Source: Candidatus Omnitrophota bacterium (GTDB taxonomy: Bacteria > Omnitrophota > Gorgyraeia > Velamenicoccales > JABMQK01). From it: 64,000 bases of DNA. The DNA is taken from NCBI GenBank assembly GCA_028711115.1, contig JAQTSV010000001.1:902032-966031 (forward strand). Reading direction: 5' to 3'. The notes under the pieces are model-generated. The model did no database searches and was not told where the DNA came from. It saw nothing but the letters and a program-made list of their open reading frames with translations. Shown in pieces: positions 1,748-46,063 of the stretch; positions within the stretch are counted from its first letter, which is position 1; each line of letters starts with the position of its first letter. The position numbers were made by a program, and so were the translations under genes.

Positions 1748-1769
1748 AGCAATTAACCGGTTTAATTTT

Positions 1770-3268: not shown

Positions 3269-3286
3269 TTATTACCTTTCTTTTAA

Positions 3287-4342
3287 TCAAAAACCTAGAT
3301 TTTTAACTGCCCGATGATACTCTTCCCATTGACCAACATCTATCCATGAGTTTTCGTTAATAGGAAATACGCCAATCTTTTTATTTTTTTCTTTTAGTTT
3401 TTTAACCAAGTCTGTAATATGAAACTCTTGATTGTCTGGTATTAAATTAAGCGCTTTCTTTCTTAAAATATAAAAACCAGTATTAACCAAGAAATCATAT
3501 TCTGGTTTTTCGTGCATAGCTGTCAAAAAACCACCATTTTCTATCTTGCATATACCATACGGTATCGTATAGTGCTTCATTGAGGCAACGATTGTCATAT
3601 CATTTTTATTTTTTTCATGGAGTTCTAATACTTCTGTATAATCAGAATTAATAATGACATCACAATTGGTTACAAACAAAGAATCTTTTATTTCTTTACG
3701 TAAAAAACTAAGGCTGCCAATTGTACCCATAGGTTGTTTTTCTTCGATATAGCAAATAGTGTAACTGGTATTCATCTCTTCAAAATAAGATTTAATCATT
3801 CTTGATTTATGGTTGATGGTTATATAGAATTTCTTAATTCCATACTGAGAAAATTTATCCATAATAATATCTAATATTGTTTTCTCTCCAATAGGTATTA
3901 GTGGCTTCGGCAATATTTTTGTAAAAGGGTCAAGTCTTGTGCCTTTACCGCCAGCCATAATCACGACCGGGATGGATAGCTTTTCCCTGGAAGACAATAT
4001 TCTTTTACCAAAAGTAGCATCCCACAATAAAACATCTACCACTTCCTTGTTTTTATTTACCACGGGTATCCATTCAATTTTATTTCTTAGCATTAGCTTC
4101 TTTACTTCTTCAACAGAATAATTTTCTGATACTAAAATAGGATTTTTATTATAGATTTTACTGATTCCCCCGGATAAATTCCCTCCTGCTAAAATCCACC
4201 TGCGAATATCTCCGTCGGTAAGAGAGCCTATAAGTTTATTCTTACTATCTACTGCAAAGAGGACTTTTTCCCCGACATCCCCCATACGTTTCATTGCTTC
4301 TTTTACGGAAATATTTTTTGTAATCAATAGTGTTTTTTTCAT
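3287..4342 (-). CDS. CBS-domain plus sugar-phosphate nucleotidyltransferase (PtmE-like hexosamine-1-phosphate guanylyltransferase)
   Basis: N-terminal CBS pair (LTDGDIRRW, IEWIPVV) followed by [26 protein letters not shown], the nucleotidyltransferase G-loop. Same architecture as the Campylobacter legionaminic acid enzyme PtmE. Confidence 0.7.
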   Translation of the reverse strand: MKKTLLITKNISVKEAMKRMGDVGEKVLFAVDSKNKLIGSLTDGDIRRWILAGGNLSGGISKIYNKNPILVSENYSVEEVKKLMLRNKIEWIPVVNKNKEVVDVLLWDATFGKRILSSREKLSIPVVIMAGGKGTRLDPFTKILPKPLIPIGEKTILDIIMDKFSQYGIKKFYITINHKSRMIKSYFEEMNTSYTICYIEEKQPMGTIGSLSFLRKEIKDSLFVTNCDVIINSDYTEVLELHEKNKNDMTIVASMKHYTIPYGICKIENGGFLTAMHEKPEYDFLVNTGFYILRKKALNLIPDNQEFHITDLVKKLKEKNKKIGVFPINENSWIDVGQWEEYHRAVKNLGF

Positions 4343-4363
4343 TTCTATCTCCTAGGGAAATTA

Positions 4364-5398
4364 TTATTTAAAATCATCCCAAGTGAATACCTCATCTTTA
4401 TTTTTATCCCTTATTAATTCTAAGCCGATTATCTTATTGTAATCCTTTGGAGAAGTACCGTATCCCGGCCTTTTTATCTCAATCATTTCTCGACAAATCT
4501 TCTCGCCTGCCTTCAAGTCTCTTGCTACAATTAAACTTTTACGAACCACTTTTATATTTTCCATTTCGCAATGCTGCGGTTTCTTTATACCATCTCCTAA
4601 GCCAATCTCTATATTGCGTATTGCCTTTACAAGCCGACCTAATTCTTCTGGCTCTGAAGACGCTTTATGATCAGGGCCAGGCATATTTTTATCAAGCGTA
4701 AAATGTTTTTCTATTATTGTGGCCCCTAACGCAACTGCCGCGACTGAAGCCTCTACTCCTATAGTATGGTCAGAATAACCCACGGGAAGGCAAAATTCTT
4801 TTTTAAGTGTCTGAATCGCCAAAAGATTCGCCTCTTTATAAGGACAAGGATAACTTGTTGTACAATGCATTAACGTCAAAGGTTTAAACATGGTGGTTTT
4901 CTTCAAACACCCTTGATTATCAATAATAATTTTAACCGCTTCTTTTACTTCTTTTAAGGTAGCCATTCCTGTTGAAAGCAATACAGGTTTGTTTCTTTGA
5001 GCAATATATTTAAGAAAAGGCAAATTATTTAAATCTCCGGAGCCAATTTTATAGGCAGGGACAATTTTTTCCAAGAAATCAACGCTTTCATAGTCAAAAG
5101 GCGTTGATAAAAATAATATACCTTTACGGTCGCAATATTGTTTCAGGGATATGAAAGATTCATAAGATAACTGGAGCCTCCTTAACATTTCCAACTGTCC
5201 TTCTTTAACTCGGGAAGAAGATAATTGGTATCTTGCTTTCTTTGTTAATCTGGAGGCTAAGTTTCCCGCTTTAAAAGTCTGAAATTTAATAGCATCAGCA
5301 CCTGCTTTATAGGCAGCATCTATTAATTCTAAAGCACAGGATTTCTTTCCATTATGATTTACGCCTGCTTCTGCAATTATAAATATTTTTTTATCCAT
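4364..5398 (-). CDS. neuB: N-acetylneuraminate synthase family (NeuB/LegI-type nonulosonic acid synthase) with C-terminal SAF domain
   Basis: IIAEAGVNHNG...AGADAIKFQTF, GYSDHT and EKHFTLD motifs. The C-terminal VVRKSLIVARDLKAGE stretch looks like a SAF domain. Confidence 0.85.
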   Translation of the reverse strand: MDKKIFIIAEAGVNHNGKKSCALELIDAAYKAGADAIKFQTFKAGNLASRLTKKARYQLSSSRVKEGQLEMLRRLQLSYESFISLKQYCDRKGILFLSTPFDYESVDFLEKIVPAYKIGSGDLNNLPFLKYIAQRNKPVLLSTGMATLKEVKEAVKIIIDNQGCLKKTTMFKPLTLMHCTTSYPCPYKEANLLAIQTLKKEFCLPVGYSDHTIGVEASVAAVALGATIIEKHFTLDKNMPGPDHKASSEPEELGRLVKAIRNIEIGLGDGIKKPQHCEMENIKVVRKSLIVARDLKAGEKICREMIEIKRPGYGTSPKDYNKIIGLELIRDKNKDEVFTWDDFK

Positions 5399-6872
5399 TA
5401 TTCTTGACGGCTACAAACGGAACTCCATATCCAACTATATTATCTTGGATATCATGTGTTACTACGCTTCCAGAACCAATTAAACAATGTTTTCCTATTT
5501 TTAAATATTGGTTAATCACTGCCCCTGCCCCGATATGGCTATAATCACCGATCTTTACTCCCCCACACAACACTGCCCCGGGGGCGATATGTACAAAATC
5601 CCCTATTTCACAATCATGATCGACAGACGAAGATGTATTTATGATGGCGTTTTTACCAATTCTTACGCCCGGATTAATTTTAACTCCTGCTGCGATAAAA
5701 GTACCCTCGCCTATCTTACAATCAGAAGCAATTACAGAAGAAGGATGAATTACCGTTGCTAAATTAAATCCTATCTTCTTTATATATTCATAAATTCTTA
5801 TTCTCGTAGAACAATCTCCGATCGAACCCACAGATATAAACGCGATTCTTAAGTTGTTTTTATATAAAGATACTAACTTTTCATCGCTTCCAATCATATC
5901 AACATTATTTTTTTCTTCACCGTATTTAAATTTTGGGTCAAATATTGCCCCTATTTGAAATTCACCAGACTTATGAATGGCATCAATAATCACATTGCAA
6001 TGCCCACCACCACCTATTAAAACTATTTTCTCTATATGTTTAGCAGGGATGTATTTTTCACTTATTTTAAATGGTTTTAATAAATTATCCTCTCTTATTT
6101 GTTCCGATATCCTCTCATTTATGACAGTAAATTCTTTTCCTTTGATTTCAATAGAAGCGCCATCGTAAGGCGGAAACCAAAAGGCCCTAATTTTCCTTTC
6201 TATTGCTTCAATATCGTCAGAAGGATAGATTTTGCGTAAATTCTCGAAATCTTGTTTAGATATATAACGGCCATCACCTTGAGGACAGCTCGGTAGCGAC
6301 CTCTTGCTATACGCTAAATCAATTACCTCTTTGAACAAATCGAGCATTACCCCTAAGCTCTTTTGTTCTAAAGAATATGCTGTCTCAATATCAGAGTTAA
6401 TATCAAATCGCTTAATTTTAATAATTTCACCTGTGTCAAAAGTTTCATCCATAACAAAATGCGCTGCCACGCCCCACGAGGATAACTGTTCAAAAATAGC
6501 GAAATTATATCCTCCCACCCCCCTGAAATCAGGCAGTGGTGCCGGATGAAAGTTAATACATCCTATCTTTGGTAAATCAATTAATGGCTTTTTAAGCCTC
6601 TTCCAAAAAAGAAAAGAAATAACCAAATCAATATTTTTCAGTGAATAACTTGAATCTAGAGCTTTTGTTTTATTTTTAAGGCGATCATACAACTCATCAT
6701 CTGTAACTACGGGTATCCCAAGTTTGCATGCCACATCAATGAGGCGTGTTTCTTGGGGAGCGGCTTCTTGCGTAGGTGCAACTACAGCCACAACCTCTAT
6801 GCCTTTGCTAAGGAGATATTTCAAGCCCTCCACAACAGCAGGTTTATCTTTCCCCATATAAATTACTCTCAT
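5391..6872 (-). CDS. Fusion protein: N-terminal formyltransferase domain plus C-terminal left-handed beta-helix sugar N-acyltransferase (PglD/NeuD/LegH-like)
   Basis: Residues about 1-270 carry INFHPAPLPDFRG (Asn/His) and DETFDTGEII (Asp), the formyltransferase catalytic motifs. Residues about 283-493 begin IVLIGGGGHCNVIIDAI (NeuD/PglD Rossmann-like N-domain), followed by hexapeptide repeats (IGEGTFI, IGKNAII, IGDFVHI, IGDYSHI, IGKHCLI). Confidence 0.75.
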   Translation of the reverse strand: MRVIYMGKDKPAVVEGLKYLLSKGIEVVAVVAPTQEAAPQETRLIDVACKLGIPVVTDDELYDRLKNKTKALDSSYSLKNIDLVISFLFWKRLKKPLIDLPKIGCINFHPAPLPDFRGVGGYNFAIFEQLSSWGVAAHFVMDETFDTGEIIKIKRFDINSDIETAYSLEQKSLGVMLDLFKEVIDLAYSKRSLPSCPQGDGRYISKQDFENLRKIYPSDDIEAIERKIRAFWFPPYDGASIEIKGKEFTVINERISEQIREDNLLKPFKISEKYIPAKHIEKIVLIGGGGHCNVIIDAIHKSGEFQIGAIFDPKFKYGEEKNNVDMIGSDEKLVSLYKNNLRIAFISVGSIGDCSTRIRIYEYIKKIGFNLATVIHPSSVIASDCKIGEGTFIAAGVKINPGVRIGKNAIINTSSSVDHDCEIGDFVHIAPGAVLCGGVKIGDYSHIGAGAVINQYLKIGKHCLIGSGSVVTHDIQDNIVGYGVPFVAVKNNG

Positions 6873-6891
6873 TTTAGATACTTCCCCCTTT

Positions 6892-8064
6892 TTATTTACC
6901 GGTATAAAAAGTTTTTGCTAATAATCCTTTGCCTATCTTTATATTTTTCAATGTTTCTTTAATCCTTGAGGAAGTCCGGCCATCGCCAAAGGGATTTTTC
7001 AGATTAATCAGCCTCTTCTTAAATTCTTTGCTTAAAGCTATTCTGGCTGCTTTAACTATAGACTCAGTAATGCACACGCAATCAATTACATTTGCGGCCT
7101 TATATCTTGCCTCCTGTCTTCTTCCGATATTAACTACCGGCAATTTAAAAGAAGGCGCCTCGTGAATGCCGCTGGAAGAATTACCTATCATAATATCAGC
7201 GCATTTCAATAAAGATAAATATCTCCTCTGACCCAAAGAATTGAATATCCTTACTTTAGCTTGATTCTTTTTTGCATACTGCAATATTTGTTTATAAATA
7301 ATGCTCGAGCCTATATCGGCTCCGGGAAAAGTAAATACTGTTCTTAAGCCTAAAATATCAAGGGCTTCTAATAAATTTCTTATTTGGCCAAGAGGTTCGG
7401 CATTGCCTAATGTCTCGGGATGGTATGTTACTACTGCAATCGGATTATCTAGCAAAAAATTAAGTTCTTTTTCCAGTTGATGTTTAGATAATAATTCGCA
7501 TTTTTTAATGCCATCTACGGCCGGAGAGCCAAAAACAAAAACCCTGTCAGGGGATTCGCCCATACGTATTATTCTCTGGGCATATTTAGCCACGGAAGGA
7601 AAATGAATATAAGACATCTTTGTAATGGCGTGGCGGAATCCTTCATCGAGGCAACCAGCAGTAATTTCTCCACCGTGAATATGCGCTATAGGTATCCTGG
7701 CTACATACGCTGCTACTGCTGCTGCAAAAATTTCATACCTGTCACCAAGAAGCACTACCATATCCGGTTTTAATTTTCTGTAGGCCTTTACAAATCCTAA
7801 AACACCCTTGGATATAGCTTTAGCAATACCTAATTCAGTATCAGCATATTTTGAAGAAAGCACAGGAATTTTAGCATTGACATTAAAACCATCTTCTTTT
7901 ATTTGTTTATAAGTTAAACCATATTCGACAGATAAATGGGCGCCGGTTACCGCCAATTGTAGTTTTAATCCTCCATCTCCGCAGATTTCTTTCAATAGCC
8001 AGAATAAAATGCCATATTCAGCCCGGGAACCAGTAACTACGCAAATTTTCCGTTTCTTAGTCAT
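6892..8064 (-). CDS. neuC: Hydrolysing NDP-sugar 2-epimerase (NeuC/LegG family)
   Basis: KICVVTGSRAEYG start, HIHGGE and HPET motifs. 390 aa. Adjacent to the NeuB-like gene. Confidence 0.8.
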   Translation of the reverse strand: MTKKRKICVVTGSRAEYGILFWLLKEICGDGGLKLQLAVTGAHLSVEYGLTYKQIKEDGFNVNAKIPVLSSKYADTELGIAKAISKGVLGFVKAYRKLKPDMVVLLGDRYEIFAAAVAAYVARIPIAHIHGGEITAGCLDEGFRHAITKMSYIHFPSVAKYAQRIIRMGESPDRVFVFGSPAVDGIKKCELLSKHQLEKELNFLLDNPIAVVTYHPETLGNAEPLGQIRNLLEALDILGLRTVFTFPGADIGSSIIYKQILQYAKKNQAKVRIFNSLGQRRYLSLLKCADIMIGNSSSGIHEAPSFKLPVVNIGRRQEARYKAANVIDCVCITESIVKAARIALSKEFKKRLINLKNPFGDGRTSSRIKETLKNIKIGKGLLAKTFYTGK

Positions 8065-9235
8065 TTTTGAGTGCTTTTACTACTTTTTTAATTTCATTTT
8101 CCGTAATCCCTATGCTGCATGGAATATTCAAAATCCTCTCAGAAAAATAATAAGCCTTCTCAATCTTATAATTCTCGTAGTCTTTATACGGTTTCTGCAA
8201 ATGATTTAAATGCCACAAAAACCTGCTTTGTATTCCTTTTCTTTTTAACCGCTCATGTAACTGATCCCTATTCATACCATAAATCTTTTCTTCTACTATC
8301 AGAGAGTAGAACCAGAAATTTGAAAAACCGTAATCTGGCTCACCTATCAGTTTAAGCCCTTCAATTTCGTCGATATATTTTTTATAAGCGAGATAATTTC
8401 TCCTTTTGATTCCTATAAATTTATCCAGCTGTTCAAGTTGGGCACAACCTAAGGCAGCACTCAAATTAGTCATTCTATAATTATACCCGATTTCATTATG
8501 AATATATCTTAAGTTGTCGTCCTTTGCCTGGGTGGTAAGATATTTTGCTTGTTTAGCATAATAAGAATTATTGGTAAGCACCATACCGCCTGCGCCTGAG
8601 GTAATAATCTTATTCCCATTGAAGGAATAGCACCCTACATCTCCTATGGTGCCGGTCTTTTTGCCTTTTAATCTTCCCTTGGTATAAAATGACCCGATAG
8701 ATTCAGCTGCATCTTCAATTATTTTTAAATTATACTTTTTAGCAACATCGTCCAAGGATTCTAAATCTACAGGATTACCGAATACATGTACTGCGATAAC
8801 AGCTTTAATGTGTGAACCAGTTTTTTTGTTGATTAATTTTCCATTCATAAACTTGCATTCATATTTGCAGAATTCCCTGACTTTATTTACATCCATATTA
8901 AGAAAACCATCGCAATCCATAAATATGGGATCTGCCCCTACATACTTTGCGGCATTTACAGGGGCAATAAATGTAATTGTGGGGACTATTACGCTATCGC
9001 CTTTGGTTACTCCCGCTAAAATCAAAGCAATATGTAAAGCAGCTGTGCCGTTTACACAGCTAATTGCATATTTTGTTCCTGCATAATCAGCCACTTTATT
9101 CTCAAACATATCTACAAAACTACCAGCAGAAGAAATCCATTCCTTTTCTATGCATTCCTTAACATACTTCAGTTCTTTACCCCGCAAAAAAGGCACAGAC
9201 AGACTAATGTTATATTTAATAGCAGTATTAAACAT
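8057..9235 (-). CDS. DegT/DnrJ/EryC1/StrS family PLP aminotransferase (LegC/PglE-like)
   Basis: ORF runs to 9289, but I prefer the internal Met (MFNTAIKYNISLSVPFLRGKELKYV). It gives the usual family N-terminus and reduces the overlap with the upstream gene to 8 nt. YSFNGNKIITSGAGGMV carries the PLP lysine region. Confidence 0.8.
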   Translation of the reverse strand: MFNTAIKYNISLSVPFLRGKELKYVKECIEKEWISSAGSFVDMFENKVADYAGTKYAISCVNGTAALHIALILAGVTKGDSVIVPTITFIAPVNAAKYVGADPIFMDCDGFLNMDVNKVREFCKYECKFMNGKLINKKTGSHIKAVIAVHVFGNPVDLESLDDVAKKYNLKIIEDAAESIGSFYTKGRLKGKKTGTIGDVGCYSFNGNKIITSGAGGMVLTNNSYYAKQAKYLTTQAKDDNLRYIHNEIGYNYRMTNLSAALGCAQLEQLDKFIGIKRRNYLAYKKYIDEIEGLKLIGEPDYGFSNFWFYSLIVEEKIYGMNRDQLHERLKRKGIQSRFLWHLNHLQKPYKDYENYKIEKAYYFSERILNIPCSIGITENEIKKVVKALKND

Positions 9236-10232
9236 TATAAATATCCCATTTATATTTCGTGAAATTTTGTTTATTACTAAACCAATCAATAGTTTTTTTG
9301 ATACCTTCTTTCAAAGAAACCTTTGGCTTCCAGTTCGTCATCTCTTTTATAACGGTGTTATCACATAATAAACGTTCTACCTCGCTCTTCTCCGGCCTTT
9401 TTCTTATGCTGTCTGAAACGATTTTTGCCTTTGGATTTATCTGTTCTATTATCAGTTTTGCAAGGTTGCCGACGGTTATTTCCTGGCCAGAGCCTATATT
9501 AACTACTTTACCAATAGCGCCGCTGCATTTGGCAACCGCTACAAATCCTTCGCATGTATCGCTTACGTAAGTAAGATCTCTCGTGGGATGAAGCGAACCA
9601 AGTCTTATTTTGCTGCTATTGTTTAAAAGCTGGGTAATTATGGTGGGTATGAGTGCTCTTGCAGACTGACGTGGGCCATAAGTATTGAATGGCCTGGCAA
9701 TTACAACAGGAACATCAAAAGATCTATAAAAACTTTCCGCTATGGCATCTGCTCCGATTTTCGAAGCTGAATACGGCGATTGTGACTGTAAAGGATGTTT
9801 TTCGTCTATAGGAATATACCTGGCTGTACCATATACCTCAGACGTCGAAGTGACAACTACTCTTTCAATATTGCAATTCCGGCAGGCCTGCAAGATATTT
9901 AATGTGCCTTTGATATTTGTCTCAACATAAGAATCGGGGGAATTATAAGAAAAGGGTATGCCTATTAAGGCTGCCAGATGAAAAACTATATCTATGTTAT
10001 TATTCTTTATTACCGCACAAATACCGTTATGATCCCTGATATCTCCGGTAAAAACCTCAATGTTTTTTAACTTGTCCTTTGAAAGCGTATCTAACCATCC
10101 CCAAGAATTAAATGAATTATAATAGACGAAGGCCTTAACATTGCAATTTTCTTCCAGCAATCTTTCTACTAGATGGCTGCCGATAAATCCGCATGCGCCC
10201 GTAATAAGGACTGTTTTGTTTTTCAGTTTCAT
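9228..10232 (-). CDS. NAD-dependent NDP-sugar 4,6-dehydratase/epimerase (extended SDR; LegB/PglF-like)
   Basis: VLITGACGFIGSHL Rossmann motif, STSEVYG and YSASK (YxxxK). 334 aa. First gene of the nonulosonic acid block. Confidence 0.8.
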   Translation of the reverse strand: MKLKNKTVLITGACGFIGSHLVERLLEENCNVKAFVYYNSFNSWGWLDTLSKDKLKNIEVFTGDIRDHNGICAVIKNNNIDIVFHLAALIGIPFSYNSPDSYVETNIKGTLNILQACRNCNIERVVVTSTSEVYGTARYIPIDEKHPLQSQSPYSASKIGADAIAESFYRSFDVPVVIARPFNTYGPRQSARALIPTIITQLLNNSSKIRLGSLHPTRDLTYVSDTCEGFVAVAKCSGAIGKVVNIGSGQEITVGNLAKLIIEQINPKAKIVSDSIRKRPEKSEVERLLCDNTVIKEMTNWKPKVSLKEGIKKTIDWFSNKQNFTKYKWDIYNV

Positions 10233-10238
10233 AAAATT

Positions 10239-11780
10239 TTAGACTACACTCATAGTTTTCTTATTATTTTTATAAAAATCCTGGATAGCCTGGATTATGC
10301 TAATAGCATTTTCTTTTTGTGAAATGTTGGCCATTTTGTCATAATAATCGATCACGACATATCCTCTGTAACATGTTTTTTCCAAGGCATAAAGAAAAGC
10401 CTTTACTTTATCGCTATCTACTTTATATCCCTTTTGTATTTTTGATATGGCTTCTTTGCAGCTTTCTACCGTGGGTGTATAAAAAACGCCTTCGCAGGCC
10501 CTATACCAAGCATAACCGAAGATAAGCGCTGGCTTGCCTCTTACTACTGCCTCCCAACCCGCGGTTCCCGTTACGGTAGCAATTGCCATAGAATTATCAA
10601 TCAAATCAAATGTAGAAACTGAAAGAGGAATCAATTTTACATTCGGGAGTGAAGCTATATCATTATAAAAATCAAATGACCTGAAACGGTCTCCTGCGGT
10701 GTATTGGGCGAATTGGTTTAAATGTTCCTTGACATAAAGGCACCAGCCTTCCGGAATAGACTTGGAAAGTAAATCGACCATCAAGAATTGATTCACAAAA
10801 ACCCCGCCCCTTGGCGAAGTAGAATTTTCCGGTTGATAAGCAAGCGCCACATATATATATGGTTTGTCCAACGAGACTTTTTGGGTTAATTTATTATAAT
10901 GGTCCTTCAGCTTCTTTTTCTTTCTATTGGAATCGAATTTGCATAATTTAACAAACTTAAGATATGTCATCTGCGAATCCTCAAATCTTTTATTCTTCTG
11001 TTTTAAATAATTTGGCGGTGCAGGTTTATAGATAAAACCGATATACTTATACAAGGCCTTAATCTTATTGGTGATAAAAACTACAAAATTATAATTTCGT
11101 TTCTTTTCAATCAGCCCTTTCATATAAGTAGGCGAAGCTGTTGAGCGATCGCTGGAAACCTTATTCCAATAATTCTCCATAGACGGGGATAAGGTATATT
11201 GTAAAGTTTTTCCATTAGACAATAATTTATTATAAAAATTTATAGTGGCATCGAATTCATCTTCTACATTTTCTATGGGAAAGAAAAATCCACTGAACAT
11301 AAGAAACATAACTGTCTTTATTCTTTTCCTTTTGCATAACATATAGAGAATGTAATCAAATACTTCGTGGGGAGTAGTGGGAAATACTACCACATCAGGT
11401 TTATAATAATCCAATACAGCAAGCCAGTATTTAATCTGAAAATAATAAAGCCGCAATCGTTCCTGATAAGTGAAAGCATTGCCGGGGTCCATTCTTTCCA
11501 GCATATTGAATACTGTAGACTCATGGATTGATAAATCTTGAAGCAGGGTTTGATCTAATGCGGGAAGCGTAAATTGCGGACAATTGGAAGGCCTGATTCC
11601 CCTAATTGCATTCATATTGTTATGAAACACTGCATCGGGAAAAGCTTTCTTGATAACATCTGCTACTCTGGCCCCTCCGATCCAATAACAGATTTCCCAG
11701 CCGTCTTCTTTTTCAAGATGTTTGGCCACATCCACCCAAAAAGGCTCAGAACACTCCGCAAAAATCGCCCTTATAGACAC
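10239..11780 (-). CDS. Capsule_synth (KpsS/KpsC-like) family glycosyltransferase; candidate ulosonic/nonulosonic acid transferase
   Basis: The segment YIYVALAYQPENSTSPRGG...LYVKEH resembles the KpsS/KpsC core (Q..E/D...vKxHP). Lies between wzt and the nonulosonic acid genes with no gap to wzt. Assigned from memory of family motifs only. Confidence 0.45.
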   Translation of the reverse strand: MSIRAIFAECSEPFWVDVAKHLEKEDGWEICYWIGGARVADVIKKAFPDAVFHNNMNAIRGIRPSNCPQFTLPALDQTLLQDLSIHESTVFNMLERMDPGNAFTYQERLRLYYFQIKYWLAVLDYYKPDVVVFPTTPHEVFDYILYMLCKRKRIKTVMFLMFSGFFFPIENVEDEFDATINFYNKLLSNGKTLQYTLSPSMENYWNKVSSDRSTASPTYMKGLIEKKRNYNFVVFITNKIKALYKYIGFIYKPAPPNYLKQKNKRFEDSQMTYLKFVKLCKFDSNRKKKKLKDHYNKLTQKVSLDKPYIYVALAYQPENSTSPRGGVFVNQFLMVDLLSKSIPEGWCLYVKEHLNQFAQYTAGDRFRSFDFYNDIASLPNVKLIPLSVSTFDLIDNSMAIATVTGTAGWEAVVRGKPALIFGYAWYRACEGVFYTPTVESCKEAISKIQKGYKVDSDKVKAFLYALEKTCYRGYVVIDYYDKMANISQKENAISIIQAIQDFYKNNKKTMSVV

Positions 11781-13088
11781 TTATTTATTCTCCTTGTTCG
11801 GTGATGAGGAGTTTTCGCTGTATCTCCAAGAATGATCACACAGAAAAATCCCAAGATCACTCACTGATCTGCCTGTACCGTAAAAATCACCTGCCACAAC
11901 TTCAAATAAGGCGGCATCAGGTAATCTGTCTCCATGGACATTATTCACGTCAGCCTTTAAATCGATAATATATTTATTGGGCCTTAGCGGAAAACGTGGT
12001 ATACGGCAAATCAATTCCCCTTTTTTAGGTAATTTTTCAAAATCCTGCCCTGTTTTTCTGGACCACAAACAAAGCAAATCCCTTCCCAGGTCGTCACGAA
12101 TCCAAAACCAAACCGTAACATTACCAACTGTTTCATCTTTGCAAACATAACTGAAAACAAAATCTACAGTTTCTCCCGCGACTATACAATCAATGGGATT
12201 TCCGTCTTTATCCTGCAATCTAAATCCCGTAAAACGTATTGAGCCTGCGCCAACCCTGTCAGTGCGCTCCGCAATAGGAACCTGCCATACACCGCGCTCT
12301 ACATAAGAAGAAAGATATCTTTTTACAATTTGCTGCGAAGGTCCTTCATCTTCTTTTTCACCTTGATGTAACCAAATAGCCCTTGAGCATAAACCCATTA
12401 TGGCTTCCATATTATGGCTTACCAATAGCACTGTTCTTCCCTGATGAGTAACGCTGCTCATTTTATTTAGGCATTTTTTTTGAAAAGCAACGTCGCCGAC
12501 TGCCAAAACCTCGTCTACTAATAAAATTTCTGTCTCAAGGTGTGCTGCCACAGCAAATGCCAGACGCATATGCATTCCGCTGGAATAAAATTTTACAGGC
12601 GTATCTATAAATTCCTCCACGCCGGCAAAATCTACTATTTCATCAAATTTGCGAGTTATTTCTAGCCGTTTCATACCTAAGATTGCACCGTTTAAATATA
12701 TATTGTCCCTTCCGGTTAATTCCGGGTGGAATCCCGTACCTACTTCCAATAGAGAACCCACGCGGCCATAAATATCGCCAAAGCCGGTAGTCGGTTCGGT
12801 TATCCGGGAAAGTATCTTAAGAAGAGTTGTTTTTCCGGCGCCATTATGACCAATAATCCCCACAGCTTCTCCGTGTCTAACCTCTAAAGAAAGATTTTTA
12901 AGCGCCCACTTGGTTTTGGTAAGGCCGGATGCTGCGTAAGCCTGCCCGCGCAATAATTCCGCAGCTTTACGAAAAGGCGTCTTGAAGGCATCCGAAAGAG
13001 TATCCCTAAAAGTGCTGTATCTGGCCTTAAGCGTACCAATACGGTATTGTTTACTTATGTTTTCTACCTTTATAGCAATATTACTCAT
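11781..13088 (-). CDS. wzt: Polysaccharide ABC exporter ATP-binding protein with C-terminal glycan-binding domain (Wzt/TagH type)
   Basis: Walker A GHNGAGKTTLLK, signature YSSGMHMRLAFA and Walker B LLVDEVLAVGD. A roughly 170-aa C-terminal beta-rich extension is typical of Wzt_C. Confidence 0.85.
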   Translation of the reverse strand: MSNIAIKVENISKQYRIGTLKARYSTFRDTLSDAFKTPFRKAAELLRGQAYAASGLTKTKWALKNLSLEVRHGEAVGIIGHNGAGKTTLLKILSRITEPTTGFGDIYGRVGSLLEVGTGFHPELTGRDNIYLNGAILGMKRLEITRKFDEIVDFAGVEEFIDTPVKFYSSGMHMRLAFAVAAHLETEILLVDEVLAVGDVAFQKKCLNKMSSVTHQGRTVLLVSHNMEAIMGLCSRAIWLHQGEKEDEGPSQQIVKRYLSSYVERGVWQVPIAERTDRVGAGSIRFTGFRLQDKDGNPIDCIVAGETVDFVFSYVCKDETVGNVTVWFWIRDDLGRDLLCLWSRKTGQDFEKLPKKGELICRIPRFPLRPNKYIIDLKADVNNVHGDRLPDAALFEVVAGDFYGTGRSVSDLGIFLCDHSWRYSENSSSPNKENK

Positions 13089-13092
13089 GTTT

Positions 13093-13932
13093 TTAGATTA
13101 CATCTGCAAATGTTTTTTCCATACGACGAAAATATAAAGCCCCGCTAATTAATATAATAAATGCTGCCAAAGCCGAAATAAAAATAATAGGCCCCGGAGG
13201 AGTATTTATCCCCAATAATGCCCAGCGGAAACCTTCCACTACCCCTACCATAGGATTTATACCATACAGTGTTCGCCATGGCTCTTTTAATAAACTACTG
13301 GGATAGGCTATGGGCGTAGCAAACATCCAGACCTGGATAAAAAACGGTATGGCATACTGCACATCACGGAATTGAGCGTTCATTGCCGTAAACCATAACC
13401 CCACACCCAAGGATGTAATAACAACCAATAAACAAAGCAAGGGAAGCCATATAACTGCTGCAGTAGGAACGATACCATAACAAAACATCATCACCAGTAG
13501 CACTAAGAAAGCCAGCATAAAATCAATGCCTTTAGATAATATTGCCGAAAGAGGAATGAGTATGCGCGGGAAATAAATTTTCTTAATTAAATTCGCGTTA
13601 GATACTAAGCTGCTAGATGCATCAGATAAACCACTGGCAAAAAACGACCATGGCACTAATGCGGCATAACTGAAAATCGGATAAGGTATTCCGTCGGAAG
13701 GCATCTTGGCTAATTTTCCAAAAAAAAGCGTAAATACCACCATAGTAAACAGAGGTTGTATGATAGCCCAGGCTACGCCTATTACCGTCTGTTTATATCT
13801 TACTTTTATGTCTCTCCAGGAAAGGAAATAAAGCAACTCGCGGTATTTCCATACCTCCACAAAATCGATACCTCTCCATCCGCCAGTAGGTTTAATATGG
13901 ATATGTAATGTATCTGTTGTAGTTTCAGCCAT
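13093..13932 (-). CDS. wzm: ABC-2 type polysaccharide exporter permease (Wzm/TagG type)
   Basis: N-terminal WKYRELLYFLSWRDIKVRYKQTVIGVAWAIIQP is the ABC-2 permease signature region. About 6 TM segments. Immediately upstream of wzt. Confidence 0.85.
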   Translation of the reverse strand: MAETTTDTLHIHIKPTGGWRGIDFVEVWKYRELLYFLSWRDIKVRYKQTVIGVAWAIIQPLFTMVVFTLFFGKLAKMPSDGIPYPIFSYAALVPWSFFASGLSDASSSLVSNANLIKKIYFPRILIPLSAILSKGIDFMLAFLVLLVMMFCYGIVPTAAVIWLPLLCLLVVITSLGVGLWFTAMNAQFRDVQYAIPFFIQVWMFATPIAYPSSLLKEPWRTLYGINPMVGVVEGFRWALLGINTPPGPIIFISALAAFIILISGALYFRRMEKTFADVI

Positions 13933-14297
13933 CAGGATATCCTGTTTTCTAATAGATTATTCAATTTTTCCCACTCTTGTTTAATCTTCCCATACTCAGA
14001 TTCTTTCTTTTTTAAAAAACGATACATAAGGCTTATTTTTTCCTGCATCCCTTTCTTAGTTAGAAGGTATTTTATTCTTCTTAATTTATTAGGTTTGCGA
14101 GAAAAAGTCTTAACTTTAATCATGCCTTTTTTTAGCAATTCATTAATCAAATAATTGGTTTTACCAAGGGAGACATTAAGTTTTGAGGCAAGTTCTCTTT
14201 GGGTGAGATGCGGATATTTATCCAGCTCTGCAAGAAAAAAAAGAGTCTCTTCTTTTTCCAATTTATTTCTATTTGATGTGGGGGCTTGTTCAGACAT
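13932..14297 (-). CDS. EPS-associated MarR-family winged-helix transcriptional regulator
   Basis: LTQRELASKLNVSLGKTNYLINELLKKGMIKVK...KYLLTKKGMQEK...FLKKKESEYGKIKQE matches my recollection of the small EPS-associated MarR subfamily. 1-nt overlap with wzm. Confidence 0.65.
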   Translation of the reverse strand: MSEQAPTSNRNKLEKEETLFFLAELDKYPHLTQRELASKLNVSLGKTNYLINELLKKGMIKVKTFSRKPNKLRRIKYLLTKKGMQEKISLMYRFLKKKESEYGKIKQEWEKLNNLLENRIS

Positions 14298-14423
14298 TGA
14301 ACACTATTGTACTACAAGAACCTTAAATGTCAACATTTTTGTAGTTTAACCAGGGGTGAAAGTCTTTTGAAAACAAAAGGTTAGAAGATGCGGATATAAA
14401 ATACGGAGATGACAAAAAAACGG

Positions 14424-15377
<954 letters not shown>

Positions 15378-15392: not shown

Positions 15393-16457
<1,065 letters not shown>

Positions 16458-16471: not shown

Positions 16472-17470
16472 TTATACTTTTGCTTCTCTTAGATATTTTA
16501 TTGCGACTTCCGGCGGGGTAACTACTGCATAGAATCCTGTTCCCCATTCAAAACCTGCGATACCTGTCAGTCGGGGCATTATCTCTATATGCCAATGATA
16601 ATATTCGTGGTCTTCTTTGTCGCAAGGAGCTGTGTGTACAATAAAATTATAAGAATGATCATCCAAAGCAATCTTTAACCTTAGCAATGTTTCTCTTAAG
16701 ATCTTGGCTAATTCCAATCTTTGCCTTTCATTCATTTCACAAAAATGGCTGGCATGTTCTTTAGGAATTATATGAACTTCGAAAGGAAATCTGGAGACAA
16801 ACGGACAAAAAGAAACAAAGTATTTATTCTCAATCAAAATTCTTTCTTTTTCCTGCAATTCCTGCCTGATAATATCACAGAATATACAGCGCTCTCGATA
16901 TTCGAAATAAGTACTTGCCCCGGATAATTCTTCCAAGACATTTTTGGGAATCATGGGAAGGGCAATCAGCTGCGTATGGGAATGTTCCAAGGAAGCCCCA
17001 GCTATTGCACCACGGTTTTTAAAAATTAAAATATATCTGAATCTGCTATCTTTTTGTAAATCTATGGATCGACGGCAATACATATTAATACTCATTGCTA
17101 CTTCTTCATCGGTCAAATCCGTAATGTCCTTATTATGATAAGGCGTTTCTATTACTACTTCGTGAGCTCCTATCCCATTGGACATATCATAAATACCTAT
17201 GCCTCTTCTTTCCAAATCTCCCTCGATTTGTAAGGCGGGAAATTTATTCGCCACTGTCCTTACCAACCAACCAGGAGTATTGGGATGGGTTTCTTCATGG
17301 CGAACGGCATCTATCTCCGGAGGGGTCATAAATTCATTACCGTAACAAAACGGACAAGGGCCACTGCGGGGTATGTGTTCTTCCTTTGCGAAATCGCTGG
17401 GAATCTTAGGTGTATCTACATTAATTATCACCCATCTACCGCCAACAGGATCTTTTCTCAGCTCTGCCAA
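16472..17470 (-). CDS. galT: Galactose-1-phosphate uridylyltransferase family (GalT, HIT branch III), catalytically complete copy
   Basis: ELRKDPVGGRWVII start, CPFC zinc motif, HSHTQ (His163/His165 equivalent to E. coli HPHGQ), second half-site HWHIEIMPR. Confidence 0.8.
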   Translation of the reverse strand: MAELRKDPVGGRWVIINVDTPKIPSDFAKEEHIPRSGPCPFCYGNEFMTPPEIDAVRHEETHPNTPGWLVRTVANKFPALQIEGDLERRGIGIYDMSNGIGAHEVVIETPYHNKDITDLTDEEVAMSINMYCRRSIDLQKDSRFRYILIFKNRGAIAGASLEHSHTQLIALPMIPKNVLEELSGASTYFEYRERCIFCDIIRQELQEKERILIENKYFVSFCPFVSRFPFEVHIIPKEHASHFCEMNERQRLELAKILRETLLRLKIALDDHSYNFIVHTAPCDKEDHEYYHWHIEIMPRLTGIAGFEWGTGFYAVVTPPEVAIKYLREAKV

Positions 17471-17472
17471 AA

Positions 17473-18495
17473 TTACACCTCTATTTCTTTTAAATACTTA
17501 GCAGCATTTTCCGGCGGAATAGGACAAATGTAAAAACCCGTCCCCCATTCAAATCCTGCTACTCTAGTCAAACGCGGCATTATCTCTATATGCCAATGAT
17601 AATCTTCCTGGATTGTCTTCCAATAACCTGTTTTCTTTCTTTTGAAAGGGGCTGTATGTAGAATTAAATTAAACGGCGGATCGTTTAAACCCTTTTTCAA
17701 TTTGAGAAGAGTCTTCTTGATTATGCGGGCTAGATCCAGATTATTCTCAAAACTCAAATTATAGAAATCACAGGAATGTTTTTTGGGTAAAATCCACATC
17801 TCAAAGGGAAAACGTGAAGCAAAAGGAACAATTGTAATAAAACCGTCTATATCGAGGACCATGCGACTCTGTTCTTCTATTTCTTGCTTGATGAGGTCGC
17901 AGAATATGCAACGTTCATGAATATCATAATAGTGGCGGGCACCTATCAGTTCTTCCTTTACCCTTTTGGGTGTAACCGGTGTGGCAATTAGTTGTGTTCT
18001 GGAATGTTTGAATCTTCCGCCTCCTGCAGACCAGCCATAATTTTTAAATACAAGGACATATTTGAAACGCGAATCTTTCTCTAAGTCCTTGGTTCTTTCT
18101 ACAAAACAAGTCAGCACCTTGGCAATCTGTTCTTCGTTTAAATCAGCCAAATTACTGATATGCTGCGGTGTTTCTATGACTATCTCATGGGCACCTATGC
18201 CATTCATTACGTCATAGACACCTTTGCCTCTTCTGCCTAAATCTCCTTCGATTCTTAGGAAGGGGGCCTTGCTGGGAACCACTCTGACATCCCAACCAGA
18301 TGAATTCTTTTTCGTCCCGAATTTCCTTATGGCATATATCTCCGGCGGAGTGTTGCCTTCCCTGCCTTCACAAAACGGACATTCACCTTCCGGCGGACCG
18401 CCGTTTTCTTTGGCAAAATCATCGGGACGCTTTGCCCTCTCTACAGAGATAATAACCCATCGTCCAATAATCGGATCTTTTCTTAGTTCTGGCAT
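17473..18495 (-). CDS. GalT-family paralog with the nucleophile His replaced by Arg (HSRTQ)
   Basis: Same architecture as the neighbouring galT (ELRKDPIIGRWVII, CPFC, HWHIEIMPR), but the active-site pentapeptide reads KHSRTQ. The Arg codon AGA is at 17998..18000 on the minus strand. Confidence 0.75.
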   Translation of the reverse strand: MPELRKDPIIGRWVIISVERAKRPDDFAKENGGPPEGECPFCEGREGNTPPEIYAIRKFGTKKNSSGWDVRVVPSKAPFLRIEGDLGRRGKGVYDVMNGIGAHEIVIETPQHISNLADLNEEQIAKVLTCFVERTKDLEKDSRFKYVLVFKNYGWSAGGGRFKHSRTQLIATPVTPKRVKEELIGARHYYDIHERCIFCDLIKQEIEEQSRMVLDIDGFITIVPFASRFPFEMWILPKKHSCDFYNLSFENNLDLARIIKKTLLKLKKGLNDPPFNLILHTAPFKRKKTGYWKTIQEDYHWHIEIMPRLTRVAGFEWGTGFYICPIPPENAAKYLKEIEV

Positions 18496-18563
18496 ATTAA
18501 GCGTAAATTATAGCATAAATATCTCGTATTTCAACCACTTTTTACATTTGTGGTTTATTAAAT

Positions 18564-27661: not shown

Positions 27662-28354
27662 TCAAATCCACAGAATACCCGACACATATTTTGAGTTTTG
27701 GGAAATCCTGAAAGGAAAATGATTTATTACTTTATCAAGCTGAATATTTTTATTTAAGTCTGACTTTATCTCTAAGACCAGGGCCTCTGACACGGGATTT
27801 TGAAAATGCAGATTAGGATTAGGATAGACCCGCTGATCATAAACTCGCTGATTGTAGTCCAGTGTAATTCTGCAACTACTGTCAAGCGTCTCATAATAAT
27901 AACGATAATAACTGTTGATGATCATCGGTTCGCTTGCATAAAAGAATTCTACTTTTAATAAGTCAGTGAGATTTTCTTGTATAGTAAACCTAATTTCATC
28001 CCAATCAAGCCTGCTGAAATCGATTGGCTTATCTATCTCCTGAGATGCCTTGGTAATAAGCATGCCTTTTTTTTCCTTCAGCTCCAAACTCCCTTTTGCC
28101 TGAGAAACAGATTCCCCATACCATCGAAAACGCAGTTTTGAACGCCTGTTGCAGCCAGACAGAGCATCGTGATAATTAGAAAGATTGTAAGTATCGAAGT
28201 AGGCATTATTTACCTTGCGCATGGGATAGCGCTCGATGAAAGACTTGGGATGGAGTAAAATCTGCGTCTTCGCTTCGTCGAGTGTTAAATTCTTGATAAC
28301 CATTTTATATTCGTATCGCCAATTTTTTGTAGCAATCATTTCGTGTCTTTCCAT
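27662..28354 (-). CDS. VTC-domain protein (polyphosphate polymerase / triphosphate tunnel metalloenzyme-like)
   Basis: RYEYKMVI...VNNAYFDT...RSKLRFRWYG...LELKEKKG pattern is typical of bacterial VTC (Vtc4-like) domains. An alternative start (ATG at 28339) forms an ATGA overlap with the CotH-like stop. Confidence 0.65.
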   Translation of the reverse strand: MERHEMIATKNWRYEYKMVIKNLTLDEAKTQILLHPKSFIERYPMRKVNNAYFDTYNLSNYHDALSGCNRRSKLRFRWYGESVSQAKGSLELKEKKGMLITKASQEIDKPIDFSRLDWDEIRFTIQENLTDLLKVEFFYASEPMIINSYYRYYYETLDSSCRITLDYNQRVYDQRVYPNPNLHFQNPVSEALVLEIKSDLNKNIQLDKVINHFPFRISQNSKYVSGILWI

Positions 28355-31059
28355 TTCTCGTAAAGCTTATCAATGTCCACATCTTTTGCGGCACATTCTT
28401 TGCCGTTTGCCGTAATGAATGAACCAGTCTGGCACAGGACTTCTTCAGCCACTTGGTTAAAAGATACATTATTCGCCCTAATTTCTGCAGGACCGTATTC
28501 GGGTTTTTTCTGATAAGCAGCCAGACCAAACTTGGTGCCGGTAATTTGCATATTATCTATTTCTAGTTTTGACAAATCTTTTGACGCTGCACCGAAATCT
28601 GCGTATTCTACGACAATATTCTGCGCATAGACATCGCTTTTTTCGCCTACGCTTAATCCTTTATCGCCCAGGCGATAAGCCTTCATATTTTCTACTTTAA
28701 GATTGGTTCCGCTTACATCTAAGGCATCAGCCTTTATATCCATAAAAATCGTGTCTTTAACTATACCTTGGCAAAAATCATTATCAAGTGCGTCTGAGGA
28801 GATATTTTTAAACAGTGAATTATACATCGCATATCCAACGCGAACCAGATTAACCGCATCTTCGCAATGGTTATTTTGCGCTGTAAAATTATTAAAGACT
28901 GCAGTTGTGTTATAAAATGTTACTCCTCCAGTCAATATCCAACCGGCCCTCTCTATGCCAGTATAATTTTCCACTGTTACGTGATTTAAGATTGACTTGC
29001 CGTTAGCATTAAGCACAACCAACCCTCCCCATCCTGCTGCTTGCGAAGAAAGCCTGACGGGATTATCTTCGCTGCCTTCAAAAATAATAGGCGATGTAGT
29101 TAATAACACAGCCCCTTCTTCAAATTTCAAAGTTGTACCTGACATAGCCATCAGCTTTACATCCGGAGGTATTATCAAATCACCTTTTACTTGCCAGCTT
29201 CCCTGTTTTATAACTAACGCATTAGCCTCCTTATCAAAATCCAGAAAGGGATGTTTATTCAACAAGTCCTCTACAGTGTCCGTCTGCTGAGGAATACTCT
29301 CGATAAATTTCGGCATCGGGAATCTGATAATTTCTGTAAAATGATTCTTCGTGCTGCCTAAAAGCCGGCTTACAACTTCAACTTTTATCTTACTGTCAAG
29401 CTTGTTACCTACGATATATTTGGAAGGGACAAGAATGGAAGTATGATATATCTGTTTGTCTGCAGGCAATTGATATCCCGCCAAGCCATCCAAAATAACT
29501 CTTTGATTAACAGAAAAAGGTATCAGATTTTCGTCGCCAATTCTTATACCTATTAATTCTACCGGTAGATTAAGTAAATTGCTGATGCTTAAGTTAATGC
29601 GACTATCAGTACCTTCTTTATTAATTGAATTCTCGACATATGCCTCAACCTGAACAACGGGATTAATAACCTCGTATAAGAATTTCCTATTGAATTCTAT
29701 GGCCTCCCAATCAATTGTCTCTGGTTTTTCTCTCCATAATATTTTAAGCTGCTGGCTCAAAGGAACTTTCAACGTCTGTTTCAGATGCTCTAAATATTCC
29801 GGTGAAGTAATTCTCTCACATTCCTTTATGTATTTTTCCGCTATTTCCCTGTCTCTCAGCACCCGGAGAACCCAATCCTGCTGTCCGTAAGGATAACCGA
29901 AGAATCTCTTCCCGCTTGCAATTTCGCCATAATCCTCATTGCTTATCAGGCCTCCTGCTTTCGCGTTAAATCCTATGGGTTCTAATTTTGAGGTGATGGG
30001 ATTATAGTAAAAATTGATATTTTGCCAAAGCAAGGCATGGTCTCCTGCCCATAAGTAAGTTATGGCTAAAAATTTTGCCATTAAATCACTGTCAAAAACC
30101 TCGGAAGCCTTTTTCTCCCCGGAGATAAATGCCGCCAATAGGCCAAGCGCCGTGTCCCGCTGTTTTACCAAAGAAGGATCTTTTGCAACATACTCTTTAT
30201 TAAAAACATCCAAATCGACATTTAGCCATGCCCTGGGAGTAAGAATAAAATAGGATGGATTGACAATATCAAAAGATCTGTCTATACGGTCAGGCCAATC
30301 AGCCAACTGTTTCCAATAAGAATCCTCCTTAAATTTTACTATGACGCCTGTCCTTCTGTTCTGCGATTCGATAAGTTCTTTTGAAAAATTCTCCTCAAGG
30401 GCATATATTCCTTTATTCTTCCCATTAATTACCACATCAATAAATTCATATCGTGGCGCCAGAATCCCCTCTGATCTTAAATGAGTTAAATAAGCAAACT
30501 CATTGGCATAGGTTCTAAATTTAGGATCATGTATGGAAAACACCCTCATGCCTTTGAACCTTGCATCGCCTTCTGTCCTTATGCGGAATGCCCATTTATC
30601 TCCCGATATCTGTTCAATCACATCTCCTTTTAATCTAAGTTTTATAGGTATGGTCTGGTTTTCATATCTAATGGTAGCCGGTACAAATTCCTTTTCCTCC
30701 AGAAACAGAAAACCTCTCTTTACGGCATCATCTCTATTGTTGAGCAATTTCTTATAATTTTTAAATTTGATGTCTATATAAGTCTTAGGGATATCGGGTA
30801 TTATATAACTCTGGGCACGATAGATTAAACCCAGCGTTTGCCGTTTAAATTTATTCTTGGCGTTTTCAAAAGACCGCTGGAAATTGCCTTTTTTGATGGC
30901 TTTTTGTATTGTAATCCCGCCGCCAATAATGACCCCGCCAATGACAATTATATTTATAGCGAGGGAAAGTATTAAAAGGATACGCCACCAGCGTCTTCCC
31001 TTTATCTTCTTTCGTTCTACTCTATCTTTTTTAATTCTGCGTTCACTATGAATTATCAC
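28336..31059 (-). CDS. Membrane-anchored CotH kinase-family protein with C-terminal parallel beta-helix domain
   Basis: N-terminal TM WWRILLILSLAINIIVIGGVIIGG. Central region ...IDVVINGKNKGIYALEENFSKE... is CotH-like. The last 250 aa or so show repetitive N/G/V-rich turns typical of right-handed beta-helices. Sits between DUF4956 and VTC genes. Confidence 0.6.
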   Translation of the reverse strand: MIIHSERRIKKDRVERKKIKGRRWWRILLILSLAINIIVIGGVIIGGGITIQKAIKKGNFQRSFENAKNKFKRQTLGLIYRAQSYIIPDIPKTYIDIKFKNYKKLLNNRDDAVKRGFLFLEEKEFVPATIRYENQTIPIKLRLKGDVIEQISGDKWAFRIRTEGDARFKGMRVFSIHDPKFRTYANEFAYLTHLRSEGILAPRYEFIDVVINGKNKGIYALEENFSKELIESQNRRTGVIVKFKEDSYWKQLADWPDRIDRSFDIVNPSYFILTPRAWLNVDLDVFNKEYVAKDPSLVKQRDTALGLLAAFISGEKKASEVFDSDLMAKFLAITYLWAGDHALLWQNINFYYNPITSKLEPIGFNAKAGGLISNEDYGEIASGKRFFGYPYGQQDWVLRVLRDREIAEKYIKECERITSPEYLEHLKQTLKVPLSQQLKILWREKPETIDWEAIEFNRKFLYEVINPVVQVEAYVENSINKEGTDSRINLSISNLLNLPVELIGIRIGDENLIPFSVNQRVILDGLAGYQLPADKQIYHTSILVPSKYIVGNKLDSKIKVEVVSRLLGSTKNHFTEIIRFPMPKFIESIPQQTDTVEDLLNKHPFLDFDKEANALVIKQGSWQVKGDLIIPPDVKLMAMSGTTLKFEEGAVLLTTSPIIFEGSEDNPVRLSSQAAGWGGLVVLNANGKSILNHVTVENYTGIERAGWILTGGVTFYNTTAVFNNFTAQNNHCEDAVNLVRVGYAMYNSLFKNISSDALDNDFCQGIVKDTIFMDIKADALDVSGTNLKVENMKAYRLGDKGLSVGEKSDVYAQNIVVEYADFGAASKDLSKLEIDNMQITGTKFGLAAYQKKPEYGPAEIRANNVSFNQVAEEVLCQTGSFITANGKECAAKDVDIDKLYEKWKDTK

Positions 31060-31061
31060 AG

Positions 31062-42931: not shown

Positions 42932-42934
42932 TGG

Positions 42935-46061: not shown

Positions 46062-46063
46062 TA

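Follow-up and report, generated by a model that had tools for sequence, protein, structure and literature searches.

The GalT-family gene pair in the window

The window analysed here, a stretch of 64,000 nucleotides from a Candidatus Omnitrophota bacterium (assembly GCA_028711115.1, contig JAQTSV010000001.1, positions 902,032 to 966,031), contains on its minus strand two adjacent genes of the galactose-1-phosphate uridylyltransferase (GalT)/ADP-glucose phosphorylase family. The upstream gene, here called U (17473..18495), starts with ATG and encodes a protein of 340 aa, and the downstream gene, here called D (16472..17470), starts with TTG and encodes a protein of 332 aa; they are separated by a spacer of 2 nt (17471..17472). 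A preliminary description of this DNA had reported the two gene sizes, the spacer, a HSRTQ motif at residues 164-168 of the upstream product with its Arg codon AGA at 17998..18000, and a HSHTQ motif at residues 163-167 of the downstream product, and all of these were reproduced on the minus strand. Both genes are named galactose-1-phosphate uridylyltransferase in the source annotation.

The U and D proteins are 54% identical to each other (E 6e-134), and both passed the cut-offs of the Pfam models GalP_UDP_transf (PF01087) and GalP_UDP_tr_C (PF02744). Each matches both GalT domains over its full length, which places the two proteins in the class-I GalT group of the HIT superfamily. With the model TIGR00209 the two window proteins scored just above the cut-off (107.1 and 115.8 bits versus 102.1), and with the E. 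coli-type equivalog model PRK11720 they fell far below it (U 121.3 and D 136.7 bits; cut-off 448). The closest solved relative of both is Arabidopsis At5g18200 (PDB 1Z84), with full-length matches at E 5e-70 (U) and 1e-67 (D), and proteins of the At5g18200 type are the closest characterised homologues of U and D over the full length; the match of the window proteins to E. coli GalT was much weaker (E ~1e-21).

In U the motif reads K-H164-S-R166-T-Q168, and in the HMMER alignment Arg166 stands opposite the nucleophile His186 of At5g18200. In D it reads E-H163-S-H165-T-Q167 (codons H163 to Q167 at 16970..16984), and D aligns His-to-His with At5g18200 and with His166 of E. coli GalT. Another His serving as nucleophile after realignment was considered and rejected, as the FKN...H-x-[R/H]-x-Q alignment against 1Z84 is unambiguous and shows no alternative His nearby. 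The eight residues of U that correspond to the two metal sites of the family (C39, C42, H103 and H164; C196, C199, H240 and H302) are all invariant in an alignment of 34 U sequences; the first four make up the predicted zinc site, formed by a CxxC, one His and the motif's first His, which is also present in D. Judged by the HxHxQ motif, D is a predicted class-I GalT member and U is a homologue without the residue expected of the catalyst.

Distribution of the arginine variant among relatives

None of the best 120 database homologues of U (71-87% identity, mostly metagenome-assembled genomes of Omnitrophota) had His in the nucleophile column; nearly all read H-[S/A/T/V]-R-[S/T]-Q, and a few had Lys, Cys or Thr. 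Since the substitution spans the clade, the possibilities that Arg166 is a sequencing error or a strain-specific mutation, either of which would have deprived the preliminary description of its interest, were rejected. A scan of species-representative genomes then gave 80 loci, picked for their similarity to U. Directly downstream of a non-His U gene, about 65 Omnitrophota loci carry a His-bearing D gene, and wherever a locus extended far enough downstream the order was U then D on the same strand; the four loci that seemed to hold a single copy (L011, L046, L053 and L061) all run out at a contig edge. Among the loci and the window, 67 of 71 U copies carried Arg or Lys at position 166 (Arg in 65, Lys in 2) and four retained His (L052, L057, L062 and L068), while the D copies had His in the nucleophile column in 67/67 cases. 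Ten single-copy loci from other phyla or lineages had His in every case. The Arg166 codon was CGY in 45/60 cases, one base from CAY, the His codon of D.

In a neighbour-joining tree, midpoint-rooted and without support values, the U copies form one clade and the D copies another, with closely mirrored branching; three of the His-retaining U copies (L057, L068 and L052) lie near the base of their clade and the fourth (L062) falls within the Arg copies. P0133, a more divergent U-like protein with the motif HSRSH, is likewise encoded in a priA-fmt-U-D arrangement.

Reciprocal loss of active-site halves in U and D

Class-I GalTs and At5g18200 are homodimers with active sites located between the subunits. 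The preliminary description had taken as its background that His166 of E. coli GalT is the nucleophile, that His164 is a zinc ligand and that the dimer has shared sites, in agreement with the GalT papers. In the UDP-glucose complex of the E. coli enzyme the ligand is contacted by R28, R31, G159 and S161 (GalT papers), and the hexose-1-phosphate site of GalT consists of the K334-Q346 loop of one chain and Q188 and N173 of the other chain. In human GalT, Arg48 reaches the active site "from the opposite chain", and simulations showed the persistent intersubunit pairs R48A-F99B and R51B-D98A with glucose-1-phosphate bound at R48/R51 (PMC5081055, PMC8513031).

Alignment columns were compared across U, D and the single-copy relatives, using the position numbers of U. 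Positions 75, 160 and 166 correspond to N77, S161 and H166 of E. coli GalT, and positions 20 and 23 to R28 and R31 (human R48 and R51). No U copy (0/68) carried the complete cis set (N75, S/T160, H166 and Q168), which all D copies (66/66) and all single-copy relatives (10/10) have. The trans pair R20-x-x-R23 was kept by 65/68 U copies and again by 10/10 single-copy relatives, but by 0/66 D copies. Fisher tests gave p = 7e-40 for the cis comparison and 4e-35 for the trans comparison. Three residues invariably kept in D and the single-copy relatives have been lost from U, namely Asn75 (to Ser), Ala79 (to Phe, Leu or Met) and His166 (to Arg), and Ala159-Ser160, also kept in D and the single-copy relatives, has become Gly-Gly plus a one-residue insertion. 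At position 75, Ser was found in 62/67 non-His U copies, while Asn was found in 66/67 D copies (the remaining one is a gap) and in 10/10 single-copy relatives; the Ser75 codon of U in the window lies at 18271..18273. Conversely, several residues shared by U and the single-copy relatives are missing from D: Arg20 and Arg23 in the VERAKRP segment (codons R20-A-K-R23 of U at 18427..18438, aligned with the arginine pair of E. coli and human GalT), Arg178, Lys180, Asp298 and a short insertion at Tyr291-Trp292. Taken together with the predicted trans role of R20/R23, these losses suggest that U no longer contributes to its own site and that D no longer contributes to the site of its partner.

The column entropies divide along similar lines. 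D is more conserved at positions 41-50, 61-100 and 161-170, in the nucleotide half, and U is more conserved at 1-20, 171-200 and 231-340, with entropies in the sugar-phosphate loop (301-330) of 0.19-0.67 for U versus 0.77-1.38 for D. In the four U copies that still bear His166, N75 and A79 are already gone, as are RxxR and the YW insertion from the D partners of these copies. This suggests that the division of labour came first and that the change from His to Arg was a late step.

A similar division may extend to the wider family, which has 7676 members at E up to 0.001 in an exhaustive search. When the best 150 representatives of these members at 50% identity were classified together with the two window genes, the alignment-dependent classes comprised 98 sequences with both cis and trans residues, 20 D-like sequences (D of the window included), 15 U-like sequences (U of the window included) and 19 doubly degraded sequences. 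About one third of this set is thus cis-only, trans-only or doubly degraded, and subunit specialisation may be common in the GalT-like family.

Selection, co-production and natural fusion of U and D

Both genes are under strong purifying selection, U at least as strongly as D. The ratio of non-synonymous to synonymous substitution rates (dN/dS) had a median of 0.058 in U and 0.071 in D over the 42 locus pairs whose dS was below 1.5, and synonymous sites are near saturation across U lineages. Over 1653 locus pairs the mean identity was 66% for U versus 61% for D, with U the more conserved in 90% of pairs; the loci were picked by similarity to U, which gives this comparison a slight bias toward U. 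The idea that U is a decaying duplicate was rejected on dN/dS and conservation. U is a predicted dead paralogue that is held under purifying selection and co-encoded with a predicted active one.

The two genes are tightly coupled. In 55/65 loci the D start lies -14 to +4 nt from the stop of U, and the overlap TAATG occurs 21 times. In the window a Shine-Dalgarno-like GAGGTG (17476..17481, minus strand) lies within the last codons of U, 5 nt upstream of the TTG start of D, and GAGGT is found in the last U codons just before the D start in most related loci. No terminator-like sites were found between U, D and gap in a consensus scan. Spacers enlarged to 120-410 bp by GC-rich palindromic repeats occur in four loci (L006, 3353..3464; L012, 7027..7291; L016, 7027..7429; L044, 7024..7147). 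Examples of the repeats are ...ACCCCACACC...GGTGTGGGGT... and repeated ...CCCGCACCTCGTAAGCG... motifs, and they look like small insertions of the repetitive extragenic palindrome (REP) or miniature inverted-repeat transposable element (MITE) type.

In one assembly (GCA_003558915.1) the pair occurs as a natural U-D fusion, P0121, of 599 aa. Its N-terminal module is U-like, keeping MSELRKDP...VERAKRP and lacking the CPFC and HIT motifs, and is followed by a Ser/Lys-rich linker and a D-like module that starts at CPFC and has HPHTQ. Because the D-like module starts at CPFC, the whole N-terminal trans strand is absent from it. The fusion gene lies directly upstream of gap-pgk-tpi-secG, the position held elsewhere by the U-D pair. 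A further protein of the family, P0161 (871 aa), has two complete GalT-like modules in one chain, with His in both.

A proposed composite active site and its alternatives

We consider it likely that U and D together form an obligate heterodimeric nucleotidyltransferase of the class-I GalT/ADP-glucose phosphorylase type with one composite active site. In the homodimers of the family, each site is assembled from both chains. One contributes the cis residues, namely an Asn that binds the nucleotide, a Ser that binds phosphate and HxHxQ with the nucleophile His; the other contributes the trans residues, an Arg-x-x-Arg pair at the N-terminal end and the sugar-phosphate loop in the C-terminal part. 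Following an old tandem duplication, D would have kept the cis set and dropped the trans arginines, and U would have kept the trans set and dropped the cis set, with its His-to-Arg change coming late. The U:D dimer would then hold a single complete site, composed of D in cis and U in trans, where catalysis would still proceed via a covalent nucleotidyl-His165 intermediate on D, and the second pocket (U cis and D trans) would be dead. D would accordingly be the catalytic subunit and U a non-catalytic subunit that supplies the trans half. The sequence pattern, the adjacency of the genes, the selective constraint and the natural fusion are observed; from the sequences we infer that the two chains would dimerise physically and that each protein would be inactive alone, and the substrate proposed below is inferred in the same way. 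The suggestion in the preliminary description that U is a non-catalytic partner in a heterodimer is thus well supported by the sequence evidence of reciprocal cis and trans loss, adjacency, tight spacing, purifying selection and the U-D fusion.

Several points weigh against this proposal. The role of the arginines in trans is carried over by alignment from E. coli and human GalT, and the limits on the tree and on the identity comparison given above apply here as well. An AlphaFold2 (AF2) monomer model of U, built on the 34-sequence alignment, was poor, with a predicted local distance difference test (pLDDT) score of 63, a predicted template modelling (pTM) score of 0.68 and active-site segments below 50 in pLDDT, and was not used. 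D still conserves the C-terminal FEWGTG loop, though less strongly than U; the loop could be kept for the dimer interface, or because the pocket of U still binds something. Arg166 is 97% conserved in the main clade, far above the need of a merely dead position, which suggests a structural or ligand-binding role outside the heterodimer model. The residue might keep the empty pocket stable or be a binding site for an anionic effector; in the second case the nearest analogy would be GlgD, an inactive but modulatory subunit. Finally, there are divergent genes that lack the nucleophile and have no adjacent His copy (L083, L084/L085 and L086). The expectation that the Arg variant would be a conserved clade with a constant His partner held for the main clade, and the stronger statement that a non-His copy always lies beside a His copy in every lineage was not upheld, failing in these three divergent orphan cases. 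The orphans either have partners elsewhere, if any, or encode proteins that act alone. Their coordinates are 1704..2708 (L083), 369..1409 (L084) and 2658..3680 (L086), with the motifs HCSSR, HSISE and HPYSE; one of the three adjoins an acetate kinase gene and another a PNP_UDP_1 phosphorylase gene, and the L083 locus is rearranged immediately after the GalT-like gene.

The conservation of Arg166 also bears on a second explanation, which we regard as rather unlikely and which extends the heterodimer instead of replacing it, being compatible with it. Here U pairs with D, and its formerly active pocket is a regulatory or ligand-sensing site that tunes D in response to a phosphorylated metabolite (a glycolytic intermediate, phosphate or a sugar phosphate), with Arg166 and often Arg161 replacing in cis the trans arginines lost by D. 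This would account for the Arg or Lys that 67 of the 71 U copies carry at 166, in lineages close to saturation at their synonymous sites, for the second Arg (GGGR) brought by the one-residue insertion before the motif in 28/67 copies, for the retention of N152, H164 and Q168 in U, and for the FEWGTG loop kept by D, which would line the pocket of U. The conserved place of the pair ahead of gap-pgk-tpi is consistent with it, and the inactive GlgD that modulates GlgC offers a precedent. However, Arg161 is present in only those 28/67 copies, position 166 of the more divergent U-like proteins holds Tyr, Ser, Val, Ile, Cys or Leu, with Q168 frequently missing, and the U-like module of P0121 lacks the whole motif. 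The varied residues at 166 and the loss of the motif in P0121 argue that a conserved ligand pocket is not general. Should the pocket of U nevertheless have been rebuilt as an allosteric site, for which we see a limited chance, a phosphorylated metabolite would couple the state of lower glycolysis (gap-pgk-tpi) to the release or formation of glucose-1-phosphate from nucleotide-glucose and glycogen, and the orphan nucleophile-less copies would be stand-alone sensors or binding proteins of GalT-fold origin.

The obligate heterodimer with one composite site also has to be weighed against the view that U is itself an enzyme, with Arg166 taking part in a direct, non-covalent nucleotidyl or phosphoryl transfer in a site of its own, as a homodimer or together with D. 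The strong purifying selection on U, the Arg conserved at the former nucleophile position and the retained zinc ligands, N152 and Q168 are all compatible with such a change in chemistry. However, the nucleotide-binding Asn75 is now Ser, Ala79 is now a bulky Phe, Leu or Met, the phosphate-binding Ser160 has been lost, and the RxxR that would complete the site of U is absent from D (0/66). The strongest conservation of U lies in its trans elements and not around position 166, and the literature searched yielded no HIT-family enzyme that works in the absence of the nucleophile His. Since the nucleophile and the residues for binding nucleotide and phosphate are all missing from U, the trans arginines are missing from D and the strongest constraint on U lies elsewhere, switched chemistry is disfavoured and in our view very improbable. 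The preliminary description had offered a non-covalent phosphorylase or transferase, and also a binder of nucleotide sugars, as possible roles for U; the losses of Asn75 and Ser160 from U and of RxxR from D speak against both, the latter as far as binding in the own site of U is concerned.

It is equally improbable that U is a dominant-negative inhibitor that titrates D, or that U and D form separate homodimers with unrelated roles, given that D lacks the trans arginines in every pair, so that a D homodimer would be impaired and U looks like an activator that D appears to need, that an inhibitor would not need trans residues conserved at 96-100%, and that both the overlap of start and stop codons and the natural fusion suggest production of the two proteins together in a fixed 1:1 ratio, and this in spite of the precedent of Asw/Wpkci and Hint within the HIT superfamily and of the orphan nucleophile-less copies in other lineages.

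Comparison with known systems

The window pair shares with At5g18200 (PDB 1Z84 and 2H39), an ADP-glucose phosphorylase of the class-I GalT branch of the HIT superfamily, the CxxC/His zinc ligands, the FKN motif and the RAKRP and ENxxPAL motifs of the single-copy type, and D shares its HxHxQ. Unlike the window pair, At5g18200 is a homodimer with cis and trans residues on each chain, whereas the pair divides them between two chains and has Arg at one nucleophile position; it also lacks the YW insertion and R178/K180. The E. coli and human GalTs have the same fold and motif, with His166 as nucleophile and His164 as zinc ligand, and in them both R28/R31 (human R48/R51) and the K311-Q323 loop work across the boundary between the chains. 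They differ from the pair in being homodimers with two working sites, and the E. coli enzyme matches the window proteins much more weakly than At5g18200 does (E ~1e-21).

Two further systems combine an active protein with a paralogue that is not active. GlgC and GlgD of Firmicutes, and the small and large subunits of plant ADP-glucose pyrophosphorylase (AGPase), resemble U and D in joining a catalytic subunit to an inactive, modulating paralogue in nucleotide-glucose and glycogen metabolism; their fold is unrelated, however, and GlgC is active alone. As D lacks residues that only U can supply, the association of U and D looks obligate and not merely modulatory like that of GlgC and GlgD. In birds, the W-linked Asw/Wpkci, a member of the HIT superfamily without the motif, has been proposed to heterodimerise with its active paralogue Hint. 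Unlike U, it is a proposed suppressor of Hint and not a required half-site, and the two belong to the eukaryotic Hint branch, are not encoded in an operon and show no reciprocal loss in the active partner.

No description of a pseudo-subunit in the GalT or ADP-glucose phosphorylase family, or of the U-D gene pair, was found in the literature searched, including that on Omnitrophota galT and on DUF4921/DUF4931. Enzymes with a dead paralogue as a subunit are well known, and the U-D pair is a variant of this theme in a mechanistically classic family with an unusually clean signature of reciprocal loss.

Gene neighbourhood and probable substrate

The conserved gene order around the pair is priA, fmt, U, D, gap, pgk, tpi and secG, and the run of genes from gap onward recurs at locus L081. 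Among 81 sources (the 80 loci and the window), a glyceraldehyde-3-phosphate dehydrogenase homologue follows the pair in 61, with pgk in 30, tpi in 27 and secG in 21. In the window, gap (15393..16445, minus strand) lies 26 nt downstream of D and is followed not by pgk, as in the conserved order, but by a cluster for surface polysaccharide and nonulosonic acid. This cluster (3287..15365, minus strand) comprises a fucose-synthase-like epimerase, an ABC-2/Wzt exporter pair and genes for NeuB, DegT, UDP-GlcNAc 2-epimerase and a CBS-nucleotidyltransferase of the nonulosonic-acid type. A promoter-like site, TTGAAA with a 16-nt spacer and TG-TATAAT (18507..18534, minus strand), lies in the 68-nt gap between fmt and U; it matches the consensus at 11/12 positions with an extended -10 TG, and it is a consensus match only, the total of such sites in the region not exceeding the expectation from shuffled sequence. 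A Leloir galactose operon is unsupported, the neighbours being priA and fmt upstream and gap downstream, and a Pfam scan of 30 window proteins showed neither galK nor galE.

Other members of the family are fused to enzymes of glucan metabolism: P0156 (814 aa) joins a glycogen synthase to a GalT-like module, and P0182 and P0199 (858 and 875 aa) join a GH57 module to one. In addition, glgA lies within 6 kb in up to 7 related loci, phosphoglucomutase is encoded near the fusion gene P0121, and the window itself has a GH57 gene and a gene for an ATPase with a CBM48 module. On the basis of these fusions, the gene context and the closest characterised relative, an ADP-glucose phosphorylase, the pair probably converts ADP-glucose and phosphate to glucose-1-phosphate and ADP, or catalyses a similar nucleotide-sugar reaction. 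Such a reaction probably links alpha-glucan/glycogen metabolism to glycolysis.

Elsewhere in the window, two neighbouring minus-strand genes (59539..60630 and 61328..62866) encode an ATPase of the ParA/MinD type (AAA_31, CbiA) with a C-terminal glycogen-binding module (AMPK1_CBM/CBM48) and a GH57 glycoside hydrolase; the CBM48-carrying ATPase may serve to position glycogen granules. Four paralogous B12-binding radical SAM genes (466-483 aa) lie on the minus strand within a stretch rich in glycosyltransferase and sugar-nucleotide genes (41531..53255), inside which a mannose-1-phosphate guanylyltransferase/isomerase of the ManC type is encoded at 47062..48486. Three genes in a row on the minus strand (27662..31748) encode a protein with a VTC domain, one of 907 aa that matches no Pfam family and one with DUF4956, and may form a polyphosphate-related module.

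Significance of the U-D pair

GalT is a textbook case of covalent ping-pong catalysis, and the dominant-negative alleles of human galactosemia are explained by the sharing of active sites between its chains. A natural pair in which the cis half and the trans half reside on separate chains separates the contribution of each chain, and, as a set of ready-made mutants provided by nature, makes questions about half-sites directly testable. For annotation, the pattern means that proteins of the U type are probably no enzymes and that proteins of the D type are probably inactive alone, in spite of their naming as galactose-1-phosphate uridylyltransferases. This affects metabolic reconstructions of Omnitrophota, where the pair heads the gap-pgk-tpi glycolytic cluster, and of other uncultured phyla.

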